Position numbers: made by a program
Assembly: GCF_003018255.1 (NCBI RefSeq)
Contig: NZ_CP027440.1
Source: Escherichia coli
GTDB taxonomy: Bacteria > Pseudomonadota > Gammaproteobacteria > Enterobacterales > Enterobacteriaceae
DNA: 64,000 bases
Reading direction: 5' to 3' (one strand)
In this document: piece by piece, positions 20,101 through 32,100 of the stretch
Position numbering within the stretch: position 1 is the first letter of the stretch
Layout of the letters: each line of letters starts with the position of its first letter

Positions 20101-23100
20101 TCATGGTGTGCGTGCACCAACCAAGGCCACGCAACTGATGCAGGATGTCACCCCAGACGCATGGCCAACCTGGCCGGTAAAACTGGGTTGGCTGACACCG
20201 CGCGGTGGTGAGCTGATCGCCTATCTCGGACATTACCAACGCCAGCGTCTGGTGGCTGACGGATTGCTGGCGAAAAAGGGCTGCCCGCAGCTTGGTCAGG
20301 TCGCGATTATTGCTGATGTCGACGAGCGTACCCGTAAAACAGGCGAAGCCTTCGCCGCCGGGCTGGCACCTGACTGTGCAATAACCGTACATACCCAGGC
20401 AGATACCTCCAGTCCCGATCCGTTATTTAATCCCCTAAAAACTGGCGTTTGCCAACTGGATAATGCGAACGTGACTGACGCGATCCTCAGCAGGGCAGGA
20501 GGGTCAATTGCTGACTTTACCGGGCATCGGCAAACGGCGTTTCGCGAACTGGAACGAGTGCTTAATTTTCCGCAATCAAACTTGTGCCTTAACCGTGAGA
20601 AACAGGACGAAAGCTGTTCATTAACGCAGGCATTACCATCGGAACTCAAGGTGAGCGCCGACAATGTCTCATTAACCGGTGCGGTAAGCCTCGCATCAAT
20701 GCTGACGGAGATATTTCTCCTGCAACAGGCACAAGGAATGCCGGAGCCGGGGTGGGGAAGGATCACTGATTCACACCAGTGGAACACCTTGCTAAGTTTG
20801 CATAACGCGCAATTTTATTTACTACAACGCACGCCAGAGGTTGCCCGCAGTCGCGCCACCCCGTTATTGGATTTGATCATGGCAGCGTTGACGCCCCATC
20901 CACCGCAAAAACAGGCGTATGGTGTGACATTACCCACTTCAGTGCTGTTTATTGCCGGACACGATACTAATCTGGCAAATCTCGGCGGCGCACTGGAGCT
21001 CAACTGGACGCTTCCAGGTCAGCCGGATAACACACCGCCAGGGGGTGAACTGGTGTTTGAACGCTGGCGTCGGCTAAGCGATAACAGCCAGTGGATTCAG
21101 GTTTCGCTGGTCTTCCAGACTTTACAGCAGATGCGTGATAAAACGCCGCTGTCATTAAATACGCCGCCCGGAGAGGTGAAACTGACCCTGGCAGGATGTG
21201 AAGAGCGAAATGCGCAGGGCATGTGTTCGTTGGCAGGTTTTACGCAAATCGTGAATGAAGCACGCATACCGGCGTGCAGTTTGTAATGCATAAAAAAGAG
21301 CATTCAGTTATCTGAATGCTCTGAGGCTGATGACAAACGAAGAACTGTCTAATGCGTAGACCGGAAAAGGCGTTCACGCCCCATCCGGCCACCTTACCTT
21401 CAGTTTTACTCTTTCTCGGAGTAACTATAACCGTAATAGTTATAGCCGTAACTGTAAGCGGTGCTGGCGCGTTTAATCACACCATTGAGGATTGCGCCTT
21501 TAATATTAACGCCAGCCTGTTCCAGACGCTGCATTGACAAGCTCACCTCTTTGGCGGTGTTCAAGCCAAAACGCGCAACCAGCAGGCTGGTGCCGACAGA
21601 GCGTCCCACGACCGCAGCATCGCTCACCGCCAGCATCGGCGGCGTATCGACAATCACCAGATCGTAATGGTCGTTCGCCCATTCCAGTAATTGACGCATC
21701 CGATCGCGCATCAGCAGTTCAGACGGGTTAGGTGGCACCTGACCGCGAGTAATCACATCAAAGCCTCCTTTGCTAAAATGCTGGATCACTTTGTTGAGCT
21801 CATCTTTACCTGCCAGATATTCCGACAAGCCATGTTCATTACTCACGGTAAACAGGTTATGCGAATAACCACGGCGTAAGTCGGCATCAATAAATAACAC
21901 TTTTTGATCGGACTGGGCGATCACCGCTGCCAGAGTTGAACTGACAAACGTTTTACCACTGTCTGGCGTCGCACCGGTGATCATCAGAATATTATTCTCA
22001 GTCTCCATCATAGCGAAATGCAGACTGGTTCGTAGCGCACGTACGGCCTCCACAGCAGAATCCGCCGGGTTATCCACCGCCAGGAAGGGGATATTTTTAG
22101 TACGATGGCGCTGCTGATTAGAAAATAAATTTTTCTTACGCAGACGGGTACGTTTATCCAGCCACTCGGACATTGGGATAGTGGCATAAACGCTGATGCC
22201 GTGCTCTTCCAGTTGTTCCGGGGCTTCTACACCACGACGCAACATCGCACGCGCCAGCACGGCACCCACCGAAATAAACAGGCCAAGAATAAAACCAAGC
22301 ACCACATTCAACGCTTTTTTCGGTTTCACTGGCTGCGGCTGAGTGACTGCCGGGTCGATAATCCGCACGTTACCAATCGCACTGGATTTCGAAATACTCA
22401 ACTCCTGCTGGCGGTTAAGTAATTGCAGATATACCGCACGGCCCGCTTCTACGTCACGGCTTAAACGCAATACTTCCTGTTGAGTGGAAGGCATTGCCGA
22501 TACCCGCTTATTCAGGCGTTTGCGTTCTTGCTCCAGCGTCTGGCGTTTTTCCAGTAGCGCACGATAAGTTGGGTGATCTTTCTTGTACAGCTGGGAGATC
22601 TCTGCCTCGCGGAAGGTCAGCTCATTGAGTTGATTATCAACGTTAACAATCTGCTCAAGAACGGCTTTGGCTTCCAGGTTAAGGTCAACCGAATCGCGCT
22701 GTTGGCGATAAACGTTGAGTTTTTCTTCCGCCTGGTCCAGCTCGCTGCGTACTTCAGGCAACTGGCGCTGTAAGAACTCAAGGCTTTGTGAATCCTGCGC
22801 CGCCTGGCGAGCGATATTCTGTTGCAAATAGTTGTTAGCGATGCTGTTCAGAATACGGGTAATCAACTGGGGATCATCACCGGTCATGGTAAGTTCCAGC
22901 ATCCCGCTTTCTTTACTGCGTTCGCTAACGGTAAAGGTTTCCTGCAGGGCGTTAATCGCTTCCAGTTCGGTGCGCTGGCTCAGGACAAACTGTGTTCCTG
23001 CTTTGGCCTTAATGTCCGCGATAGTCAGCGCAACGCCGTCTTTTTCCAGACGCTGGCCGACCATACCATTGACGGTGAACCCTTCACCTTCCAGCGTATA

Positions 23101-29100: not shown

Positions 29101-32100
29101 GCAGAAAGCTTGTGTTTCATAACTTTTCCTTTATTCATCGCATGGACAATACGTACGCTTGAGATCAGGATTATCTACTTTGAGTATAACATCCTTGTGA
29201 AATCTCCCTTTCCTCATACCGCCAGCACTATATACTGCGGGTGGGAAAGGCGCGCAGAGGGAAATATAAGATTGTTAACTATTCCCCTCTGGAAATACGA
29301 CTTGTGAGCATAAGATAAATCTTAGCAAAATACAAATTAAAGATAAGAAAATTGTTAAGAAAGCTATTAACTATTGTTGGTAATATAGTTTCAAGTGGTA
29401 CTATAACTGGCTGTTAAGTGGCATTTATAACTATTAGGTGCAGAGATATTCGCTTAAATGGATTTGTTGCCCGGTGAAAAAGTAACTTGCGTTATAATTT
29501 ATGGTGTTGACTATTGAGCTATTCCAATAAAACCAGCCAACTTTAAACAAGCAACTCATATTAAGAGAGATAAACATTTGCCGCTGTTGGTCCTCGCAGG
29601 CCATTTACGCGGCAAAATTCCACGCGTAATCCTGGTATAAGCACTTCTGCGTCGCGGGGAGTGAATGCGGAAATATGGACCTGGACTTCTTTACGACCGT
29701 CGGAGGGGATAATGAATCCTTTGCCGCTTTTGCGATCAAAGGTTTTGACAATTCCTGTCATTTTACGGGACAAACAAATTCCTTACTGAAAATACTGCGC
29801 TGCACTATACGGGGTTAATAAAATAAAGCCAGCGATATTTAAGACCGCCGGACGGCTAAAATAAAATTTGCTTAATCTCAATTATCATGCGTTAATAGCT
29901 GCGTCGGTTTGAAAGACAGACAGCATACAAAGTAGTTTACTAAAGCAGTTCTCATTATCAGGCATTATCCCCTTCTTTTGAGTCTCTCTCCTGAACACTA
30001 AGTAGTTTCTGTACTAAAGCCCTGTTTGCCGAAAGGCCCAAAATGAAGGAAGTAAAATATGTCTAATAAAATGACTGGTTTAGTAAAATGGTTTAACGCA
30101 GATAAAGGTTTTGGCTTTATCACTCCTGATGATGGCAGCAAAGACGTTTTCGTCCATTTCACCGCCATCCAGAGCAATGAATTCCGCACGCTGAACGAAA
30201 ATCAGAAAGTTGAATTTTCTATTGAGCAGGGGCAACGTGGTCCCGCGGCAGCGAACGTTGTTACGCTCTAAGGTTGCCGTTATTACTCCACATCTCCATT
30301 TCCGCTGTCCATGTTGTCATGGTTCACAGTACCGCACATCGGCATTCGATGTGACGGAGCGAAATCCTTTAGGGGCAAAGTGTATTTTTTGTAAATCGAC
30401 GATGATCACCTTTGATAACGTCGCGCTGCAAATACGCACTGACCATGCGCCGCTGGATTTCACAAAATAATATCAGGCTCCCTCGTGGAGCCTTTTTTAT
30501 ATCTGCCTTATTTTTCTTCAACGCTGTATGTATAGTAAGCGATAACCTGTTGATTATTGAATCTTTCGGGGAGATGGCTTATAACATTTCTTACCTGACC
30601 AGGGTACCGGGAACCAACACCTTACTGGCGTGTTGCTGTCTTTCAAGACCAGAAGAGGTTAACAGTGAATATTGAAGAGTTAAAAAAACAAGCCGAAACG
30701 GAAATCGCTGACTTTATCGCGCAAAAAATCGCCGAGCTGAACAAGAATACAGGGAAAGAAGTCTCTGAAATTCGCTTCACCGCACGAGAAAAAATGACCG
30801 GGCTTGAAAGTTATGATGTCAAAATCAAAATAATGTGATTTTGTGAACATCACCCGTGCGAGGTGATGTTCCGCTTGTTGCTAATTTAGTGGCCAATCAT
30901 TGGCGCTTGTGGAATTAAGCGTCGGTACAATTCCTCCGGCACCGGGCTTTGCCATACTCCCGCATACATTGCGTAACCAATCACCGCAAACATAATCCCC
31001 AGAATCAGTAGCGTCATTAACCAGCCAGACAACGCAAAGGCTTTTTTATTTGCCGCAGGTTTTTGCAGTGAAAAGGTCAATGTTGAGGCTACCGGACATG
31101 ACTCTACGCAAGTCATACAGCCGGTACATTCCACTGTTCGTACCTGAATTAATTTATCGACCGGGATCCGTGATGGGCAATTTTTTGCGCATTTGCCACA
31201 GTCGATACAACTTTCGGCATTGCGACGAATCTTAAACGGCGATAATAGCGAAACCACGCCCATCAGCGCGCCATATGGGCAAAGATAACGACACCAGGCA
31301 TGGCGAATAAACAGGCTGGCAATCAGCAAAACGATCATGCTGATTAATGTCGCGGTCCCCATATGACGAAAGAAATTGAGCATTTTAACGTCCATCACCA
31401 CGCTGTAGGGCGACAACATAAAATAGTGAATCGCCTGAGCGGGCATCAATAACGCAATATAGAGAAAAAAACTCAACAGCAAATACTTCACGCCGCGCAG
31501 AGGAGTATCCAGCCAGCGGGGAAGGACAAATTGCCGACCAAACAGTTTGTTACCGAGATCGCCGATTAATTCAGAAAGCGTACCAACCGGGCATAACCAT
31601 GAACAAAAGGCCTTTTTTAATAATAGACTGATGACGATAAAAGCGACCAATAACAGCATCGCGGCGGCGTGGACGGACGGTAACTGGCCTGTTGCAAGGC
31701 TATATTTCAGATTCATCAGACCGGCAATCGGTAGCCAGCCTTCGATACCTCCCGGTCTGGTGACAAATGTCGTACTACCTGCCGTTTCGTAATAGCGCAC
31801 CCAATACCAGAACGTGATGGCAATATAAATATTCATTGCCAACAGTAATAATTGCGTCGCTTTACGCCAGGTCGTGGCATTGCGCCAGTCATTCCACGGT
31901 AATTTGCCGCCCGTCGTGCTTGGCCGCCGCTGCCAGCGGGTTCTTCTTTTCTCTGTCATGATTTTGCCAGTCCGTTAAGTTGCATACCAAATGCCACTAT
32001 TCTAGTTGTTCTTAACTGGCTGATATTGATTCAAATCGCGTTCAGGTCTTTCTTATGCAACCATGCTTCCAGAGCGGCAACACTGCGTGTAATTTCTTCG

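Follow-up and report, generated by a model that had tools for sequence, protein, structure and literature searches.

The segment at positions 21406–29120 on the minus strand of the 64-kb stretch of Escherichia coli DNA that we analyzed (the window) is gfcABCDE-etp-etk, the chromosomal operon for export of the group 4 capsule (G4C, or O-antigen capsule) of E. coli. The operon, located at its usual site and preceded by an uninterrupted upstream region, is intact at the genetic level. We put the probability of this reading at about 0.93. The system is already known, and the state in which it is found here, which is that of the majority, is an ordinary one.

An ORF scan with translation yielded seven genes in the order gfcA-B-C-D-E-etp-etk, all on one strand, with appA and cspH as the chromosomal neighbors on either side. 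The gene coordinates are the same as in the RefSeq annotation of JNE23-011, the closest complete genome, which is colinear with the window at 99.05% over 64 kb. At the DNA level, the segment is 98–99.5% identical to thousands of E. coli genomes annotated with the same seven genes, and each protein is 97.6–100% identical to its experimentally studied counterpart from EPEC O127. A check of the seven genes at base resolution revealed no internal stops and no frameshifts; every ORF length is divisible by three, and all seven protein lengths are equal to those in K-12 and in EPEC O127:H6 strain E2348/69, from which the individual proteins differ by 0–6 amino acids. The dN/dS ratio across the seven genes is about 0.04 (0.037–0.046). 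Pfam and NCBIfam returned family matches, the equivalog models for Etk and Etp outscoring those for Wzc and Wzb. Solved structures exist of these proteins themselves or of closely related paralogues (3cio, 3p42, 2in5, 2j58, and 2wmy). We found no sequence evidence contradicting the identification as gfc.

The complete locus reported in the preliminary description of this DNA is thus borne out by DNA identity, synteny, protein families, and protein identity, and its seven full-length ORFs stand at the coordinates given there. The search for a frameshift or nonsense codon against the EPEC O127 Gfc proteins, set beforehand as the refuting test, was run and found none.

Comparison with the experimentally defined operon of E2348/69 shows the same genes, order, strand, lengths, junction geometry, and appA/cspH flanks. 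GfcE and Etp are 100% identical in the two strains, and the remaining proteins differ at 1–6 residues; across the seven genes, 142 nucleotides differ, 19 of them with non-synonymous effect, and these differences are purely allelic. EPEC O127 needs every one of the seven genes for its capsule (PMC4368438, PMC8592465). The gfc genes of K-12 MG1655 (b0981–b0987) also have equal ORF lengths, with 0–5 amino acid differences each; in K-12, however, IS1D has inserted 25–33 nt ahead of the gfcA start and duplicated a 9-bp target.

In the window, the 440-nt gfcA-cspH intergenic region (29121–29560, minus strand), within which lie the 5′ regulatory sequences of the operon, is AT-rich (36% GC). Alignment with E2348/69, K-12, and JNE23-011 showed it to be intact, with a single copy of CGTATTGTC 25–33 nt 5′ of the gfcA ATG (approximately 29145–29153), the position of IS1D in K-12; IS1 is absent from this site in the window. 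The 14-nt deletion in etk responsible for operon inactivation in Shigella flexneri 2a (PMC4368438) is likewise absent, the corresponding site in the window being intact. A scan for the sigma-70 consensus gave no site upstream of gfcA, so the promoter was not located; the total from the scan, 6 sites, is below the 10.0 expected from shuffled sequence.

These data bear on the most serious alternative, namely that the operon is intact yet phenotypically silent, either because it is not transcribed under the conditions that matter or because a suitable Wzx/Wzy-type O-antigen substrate is missing, as in a rough strain or one with an ABC-transporter-type O antigen. The upstream region of 36% GC offers no consensus sigma-70 promoter, expression is known to vary by condition and strain (PMC2516531), and the separate O-antigen locus on which capsule formation depends (PMC8592465) lies outside the 64-kb window, as does waaL. 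On the other side, the promoter region lacks the IS1 insertion known as a silencing lesion; the upstream region (440/441 nt) is nearly identical to that of the capsule-producing E2348/69; and the strong purifying selection argues that the locus is in use. We regard silence of the operon as rather unlikely, at roughly one chance in four. Capsule production in the present strain would be inferred from the intact operon; since it also requires expression and an O-antigen locus located elsewhere, it is not readable from the window.

The first gene, gfcA (ymcD; 28815–29120, minus strand, as are all genes below), encodes a small Thr-rich protein (101 aa, 28% Thr) that begins with a signal peptide (AFA|AP) and has a hydrophobic Gly/Ala/Val-rich stretch at the C-terminus. 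It is identical to WP_001299283.1 of JNE23-011 and differs by two residues from each of K-12 and E2348/69; it gave no match in Pfam, which has no model for it, or in NCBIfam, which has none for any of GfcA–D. The gene gfcB (ymcC; 28064–28708) starts with GTG; its product, an outer-membrane lipoprotein of 214 aa with the lipobox LAGC (Cys16), matches the Pfam family YjbF (PF11102, 2.7e-69) above the gathering score over its full length and PDB entry 2in5, "lipoprotein ymcC" (8.6e-130), whose chain begins at Cys16; it differs from that of E2348/69 at one residue. The 248-aa periplasmic protein GfcC (ymcB; 27321–28067) gave full-length matches above the gathering score to Caps_syn_GfcC_N and Caps_syn_GfcC_C, and a match to 3p42 (4.4e-147), with six differences from E2348/69. 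It carries a signal peptide (AFA|QG), which can be added to the list in the preliminary description.

GfcD (ymcA; 25225–27321) is a 698-aa outer-membrane beta-barrel of the YjbH family (PF06082, 9e-269, full length and above the gathering score), with 2–5 amino acid differences from the references against 52–54 synonymous ones. Its N-terminus is compatible with the signal peptidase I site A21/E22 mapped by experiment (PMC8592465). The apparent lipobox at Cys19 is not used, because mature GfcD begins at Glu22, as found in the same experiments (PMC8592465). Signal peptides or lipoboxes had been assigned earlier to GfcA, GfcB, GfcD, and GfcE; GfcA and GfcD have signal peptides, and GfcB and GfcE have lipoboxes.

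The 379-aa product of gfcE (yccZ; 24040–25179) is a Wza-type outer-membrane polysaccharide export (OPX) lipoprotein, with the lipobox LTAC (Cys21), a Poly_export (PES) domain, two SLBB_2 domains, and the C-terminal amphipathic Wza_C helix. It scores 703 bits with NCBIfam PRK15078, matches the Wza structure 2j58 (9e-191), and has 100% amino acid identity to both K-12 and E2348/69. Etp (23606–24052; 148 aa) is a low-molecular-weight phosphotyrosine phosphatase (Pfam LMWPc), 100% identical to Etp of E2348/69, the N-terminus of which was established by experiment in EPEC (PMC3366997). The CX5R site noted previously is present as C13-X5-R19-S (C13TGNICRS), together with D119-P-Y121, and the NCBIfam Etp equivalog scores 333.8 bits versus 197.8 bits for Wzb, the latter being below the Wzb model cut-off.

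The last gene, etk (21406–23586), encodes a 726-aa inner-membrane BY-kinase and polysaccharide co-polymerase of the PCP-2a type, in which a periplasmic Wzz/GNVR region lies between two transmembrane segments and is combined with a cytoplasmic P-loop kinase (Pfam Wzz, WZC_N, and GNVR plus the P-loop domain). The Etk equivalog scores 1589.9 bits versus 1001 bits for Wzc, which is below the Wzc model cut-off. The Walker A motif and the Tyr-rich tail described earlier were both recovered, the former as ATPDSGKT (K545) and the latter as seven Tyr within the last 16 residues (cluster 711–722); Walker A′ (VLFIDADLR), Walker B (LVIVDTPP), Y574, and R614 are also present. The kinase domain differs from 3cio only by G605S, at a non-conserved position.

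This substitution is one of four, along with P196A in Etk, T188S in GfcB, and F206L in GfcD, at residues that differ from K-12, E2348/69, and JNE23-011 alike and could thus have inactivated the operon cryptically. All four changes, however, are conservative and lie outside catalytic and sorting motifs; position 605 of Etk is aligned to Glu in Wzc and is therefore variable, and Etk and GfcD recur with identical sequence on 67–68 independent public contigs, which makes this an established allele. Missense inactivation is accordingly very improbable.

The possibility that the locus is a misread paralogue, the colanic-acid/group 1 wza-wzb-wzc genes or yjbEFGH, is suggested by the close paralogy of GfcE, Etp, and Etk to Wza, Wzb, and Wzc and by the YjbF and YjbH families of GfcB and GfcD, but is refuted by synteny (the appA-cspH position, as for gfc in K-12 and E2348/69), by the protein identity to the E2348/69 Gfc proteins, and by equivalog scores far above the cut-off for Etk and Etp and below it for Wzc and Wzb.

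Wza-Wzb-Wzc have domain architecture and motifs in common with GfcE-Etp-Etk, and the two sets presumably share an octameric trans-envelope mechanism, whereas the proteins in the window belong to the Etk/Etp equivalog families and the locus adds the G4C-specific gfcABCD, without adjacent glycosyltransferase, wzx, or wzy genes. The gfcABCD paralogue yjbEFGH, like gfc, begins with a small Thr/Gly/Ala-rich gene (PMC8592465), but it occupies another chromosomal site and lacks downstream wza/wzb/wzc-type genes, while gfcABCD in the window is directly followed by gfcE-etp-etk on the same strand.

The genes are tightly packed, with intergenic gaps of 106 nt (gfcA-gfcB), 45 nt (gfcD-gfcE), and 19 nt (etp-etk). 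Of the overlaps reported before, the 4-nt gfcB/gfcC overlap (ATGA) and the 13-nt gfcE/etp overlap are correct, but the gfcC/gfcD junction is not ATGA; it is TGATG, with an overlap of 1 nt. The hairpin described as following etk at 21290–21322 was found by the terminator scan as an intrinsic terminator on the minus strand (21291–21322), consisting of an 11-bp stem and a 4-nt loop (21322–21297) followed by T5, with a fold energy of −16.3 kcal/mol; it is located 5 nt past the stop of the convergent appA. Judging from the sequence, the overlapping stop/start junctions (gfcB/C, gfcC/D, and gfcE/etp) would be compatible with translational coupling in one transcript ending at this hairpin, and the short or overlapping junctions, along with a single strong terminator behind etk, speak indirectly for a shared mRNA. 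In EPEC, the gfc genes through etk are reported to be on a single mRNA (PMC8592465). Rfam searches, which covered the whole window at the gathering threshold and 21200–29900 at E ≤ 1, gave no RNA family within the locus, the sole matches being a weak naRNA4/REP-like one at 21359–21432 and a chance snoRNA match.

It is conceivable, though we consider it doubtful, that gfcE-etp-etk are also expressed independently of the gfcA promoter via an internal promoter-like element and that a hairpin in the 106-nt gfcA-gfcB spacer serves as a partial attenuator. The candidate promoter, TGGACA-18-TAACAT (25234–25205, minus strand), a match at the consensus level only, spans the gfcD stop and the gfcD-gfcE spacer. 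The hairpin (28777–28754), the fold of which is not significant (z = −1.66), might set a high GfcA:GfcBCD ratio. If real, the internal promoter would account for the Etk-dependent phenotypes reported for K-12 despite IS1 in the promoter region (PMC2516531).

Of the 5,426 complete E. coli genomes surveyed, 5,422 matched the 9-kb segment or sequence flanking it, and in 3,696 at least 80% of the segment is present. The state seen here, uninterrupted across the K-12 IS1 site, was found in 3,190 genomes (about 59%). One precise shared 8.3-kb deletion, whose junction is common to 1,669 genomes, has removed the whole operon in approximately 31%; in about 8% the break falls where IS1 lies in K-12, and further genomes bear IS elements within the locus. 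It should be noted that the count of 472 from the IS1-junction query is only rough, since this query joins separate pieces; the uninterrupted-site query provides the cleaner estimate. The tally confirms that integrity varies from strain to strain, as had been claimed. The intact state is the commonest and is therefore no special feature of the present strain.

From the literature on the 97.6–100% identical EPEC O127 proteins and on group 1 paralogues (published functions: PMC8592465, PMC3366997, PMC11494523), export may be pictured as follows. Repeat units would be made on undecaprenyl-pyrophosphate by the products of the O-antigen locus, outside the window, flipped by Wzx, and polymerized by Wzy. 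Etk, as an inner-membrane co-polymerase and tyrosine autokinase, would drive export of the high-molecular-weight polymer, the Tyr cluster at its C-terminus being phosphorylated and dephosphorylated in turn; it would be reset by the phosphatase Etp, itself phosphorylated at Y121. The Wza-type lipoprotein GfcE would form the outer-membrane exit channel. The lipoprotein GfcB and the periplasmic GfcC are expected to form a heterodimer that binds the barrel GfcD, and the three together possibly insert or anchor lipid-linked chains; GfcA would be a small Thr-rich envelope protein.

According to the cited literature, the O-antigen capsule of EPEC, EHEC, and Shigella sonnei modulates how far intimin and the type III secretion system are exposed, as well as complement/defensin resistance and phage access. 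For the present strain, the intact gfc operon with its uninterrupted upstream region has little import beyond annotation; what it means is a genetic capacity for O-antigen capsule export.

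Codon-by-codon comparison of the seven minus-strand coding sequences (etk 21406–23586, etp 23606–24052, gfcE 24040–25179, gfcD 25225–27321, gfcC 27321–28067, gfcB 28064–28708 and gfcA 28815–29120) with those of K-12 MG1655, EPEC O127:H6 E2348/69 and JNE23-011 (NZ_AP045067.1) supports the identification of a complete gfcABCDE-etp-etk locus, as judged from sequence. All seven lengths are divisible by three, every gene opens with a proper start codon (GTG in gfcB, ATG in the others) and closes with a stop, and no internal stop codon was found in any of them. From GfcA to Etk, the proteins comprise 101, 214, 248, 698, 379, 148 and 726 residues, equal to those of all three references, with 2, 1, 6, 5, 0, 0 and 5 residue differences, respectively, from E2348/69; the claim of seven full-length ORFs in the preliminary description thus withstood alignment to the EPEC O127 proteins and the check for premature stops. 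Its gene coordinates are also those of the RefSeq annotation of JNE23-011, which places all seven genes, from etk to gfcA, at identical positions and is colinear with the whole 64-kb window in one alignment at 99.05% identity.

Over the seven genes, there are 123–127 synonymous and 16–19 non-synonymous differences, and the dN/dS of 0.037–0.046 is the signature of genes maintained in use. Sequences identical to the window's GfcC, GfcD, GfcE, Etp and Etk are known from public collections, the number of contigs ranging from 67 to over 1,000. Mismatches with JNE23-011, the closest genome, are unevenly spread: 47 fall within 21774–26704, from etk through etp and gfcE into the 3′ portion of gfcD, and just one between mid-gfcD and cspH, through gfcA (26705–30000), a pattern resembling that of a mosaic formed by recombination, its breakpoint lying within gfcD.

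The motifs and sorting signals named in the preliminary description were all found. Etp carries the CX5R site as C13-TGNIC-R19-S, together with the D119-P-Y121 loop; this loop supplies the catalytic acid, D119, and the residue whose phosphorylation has been studied in EPEC, Y121 (PMC3366997). Etk has the Walker A sequence ATPDSGKT, including K545, the residue changed in the inactive K545M form (PMC3366997), as well as Walker A′ (VLFIDADLR), Walker B (LVIVDTPP), Y574, R614 and the Tyr-rich tail with seven tyrosines at 711–722; its kinase domain differs from the crystallised one (3cio) solely by G605S, a position that is not conserved, since Wzc has Glu there. Lipoboxes are present in GfcB (LAGC) and GfcE (LTAC), and the solved chains 2in5 (GfcB) and 2j58 (Wza, the GfcE paralogue) start at or next to the lipobox cysteine. 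GfcA and GfcD, and also GfcC, have cleavable signal peptides. Mature GfcD begins at Glu22 by experiment (PMC8592465), which contradicts the database label of "lipoprotein" for this protein, and the GfcD N-terminus in the window agrees with Glu22 as the mature start.

Family assignments match this gene content, with Pfam YjbF for GfcB, GfcC_N and GfcC_C for GfcC, YjbH for GfcD, Poly_export, SLBB and Wza_C for GfcE, LMWPc for Etp, and Wzz, WZC_N, GNVR and a P-loop domain for Etk. NCBIfam scores distinguish the locus from the paralogous colanic-acid and group 1 systems: 1589.9 bits with the Etk equivalog model (cut-off 1248) and 333.8 bits with that for Etp. Assignment of Etk to Wzc (1001 bits, cut-off 1068) and of Etp to Wzb (197.8 bits, cut-off 243) was rejected, as both scores fell short of the cut-off. 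Structures of Etk (3cio), GfcC (3p42) and GfcB (2in5) have been solved, as have those of Wza, Wzb and full-length Wzc, which are close paralogues.

The preliminary description erred at a single junction; its other observations were confirmed and its interpretation is supported. The overlaps of 4 nt (ATGA) between gfcB and gfcC and of 13 nt between gfcE and etp are as described, and gfcC/gfcD is a 1-nt TGATG overlap, not ATGA. The etp ATG within the gfcE overlap is the start confirmed by N-terminal sequencing of Etp (PMC3366997). Translational coupling across the overlapping junctions would be a reasonable inference. The remaining spacers measure 106 nt (gfcA–gfcB), 45 nt (gfcD–gfcE) and 19 nt (etp–etk). 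Two weak proposals that lack statistical support concern these spacers. The hairpin CCCGGT...ACCGGG (28754–28777, minus), followed at some distance by a T7 run (28732–28738), could attenuate read-through from gfcA; the stability of the spacer fold does not significantly exceed that of shuffled sequence (z = −1.66). The hexamers TGGACA-18 nt-TAACAT (25205–25234, minus), lying across the gfcD stop and the gfcD–gfcE spacer, match only at the consensus level and are a possible internal promoter for gfcE-etp-etk; the promoter scan overall gave fewer sites than in shuffled sequence.

At the 3′ end, the terminator claimed after etk is indeed present: a hairpin at 21322..21297, with 11 bp in the stem and 4 nt in the loop, and T5 after it (−16.3 kcal/mol). 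It lies 84 nt past the etk stop, on the far side of a REP-like palindrome, GCCGGATGGGGCGTGAACGCCTTTTCCGGTCTAC (21355–21389, minus), which Rfam matches only weakly, to naRNA4 (26 bits, E = 0.23). The hairpin (21291–21322) starts at most about 10 nt beyond the stop of the convergent appA (21284–21286), and on the plus strand an A-run precedes it and no T-run follows; it may be a shared, asymmetric bidirectional terminator. The longest appA ORF (19958–21286, plus) starts at 19958, and RefSeq places the start at 19988 in JNE23-011, an ordinary start-codon ambiguity.

The known inactivating lesions are absent from the window. In K-12, where operon silence has been linked to IS1 (PMC2516531), IS1D is inserted 25–33 nt ahead of the gfcA ATG and has duplicated 9 bp, CGTATTGTC, whereas the window (~29145–29153), E2348/69 and JNE23-011 each have one uninterrupted copy; the 440-nt gfcA–cspH intergenic region is nearly identical in these three. 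In S. flexneri 2a, the inactivating lesion is a deletion of TGTCGCTTACTCGC from etk nt 135–148 (PMC4368438); this 14-mer is present at etk position 135 in the window. A consensus search located no promoter for the operon upstream of gfcA.

The surroundings are ordinary E. coli core genes, from sulA through hya to app on one flank, the opposite flank carrying cspH/cspG, yccM, tor, cbp, agp, rut, put, efe and phoH; the O-antigen locus sits outside the window. Gathering-level Rfam matches outside the locus are the cspA thermoregulator (cspG leader, 29903–30325, plus), two tandem REP-derived naRNA4 copies (41007–41186, minus), Ysr251 (63238–63431, minus) and tRNA-Ser (10999–11083, minus).

Among 5,426 complete E. 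coli genomes, 5,422 match 21000–30000 at 95–99.5% identity with the same genes annotated under the match; 3,696 carry 80% or more of this 9-kb segment at a single location, and 3,190 are continuous from the gfcA start across the site targeted by IS1. In about 420 further genomes, many of them laboratory K-12 derivatives, the match does not begin until the K-12 breakpoint. A less exact query for the junction counted 472 genomes in which an IS1 end lies no more than ~0.5 kb from the 5′ end of gfcA, in some of them at a different position. One precise junction is common to 1,669 genomes; those listed include numerous human isolates and an O1:K1:H7 APEC strain. At this junction, 7 nt (positions 1779–1785 of comparison locus L005) stand in for 21278–29559 (8.28 kb), a stretch that runs from the final three codons of appA through the terminator, the REP element and the seven genes to the region upstream of them, and appA, now 436 aa long, runs into and overlaps the 3′ end of cspH. 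The identity of the junction across genomes suggests a single ancestral event. Other IS elements, such as ISKpn26, occur sporadically within the locus. From these counts, the window represents the majority, intact state, and the earlier remark that integrity varies between strains, through the shared deletion, the K-12 breakpoint and other IS cases, is therefore correct.

According to the literature, a separate O-antigen locus would make O-antigen units on undecaprenyl-pyrophosphate, to be flipped by Wzx and polymerised by Wzy. In EPEC O127, all seven gfc genes are needed for capsule export (PMC8592465; PMC4368438). Etk and Etp would cycle between phosphorylation states (PMC3366997), and GfcE would form an outer-membrane portal of the Wza type. 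GfcB and GfcC pair with a KD of ~100 nM, and their heterodimer attaches to GfcD, a barrel in the outer membrane (PMC8592465). In a published model, GfcD has two barrels and a lateral gate through which lipid-anchored chains could be released (PMC11494523). The system is already known, and the window carries its commonest form.
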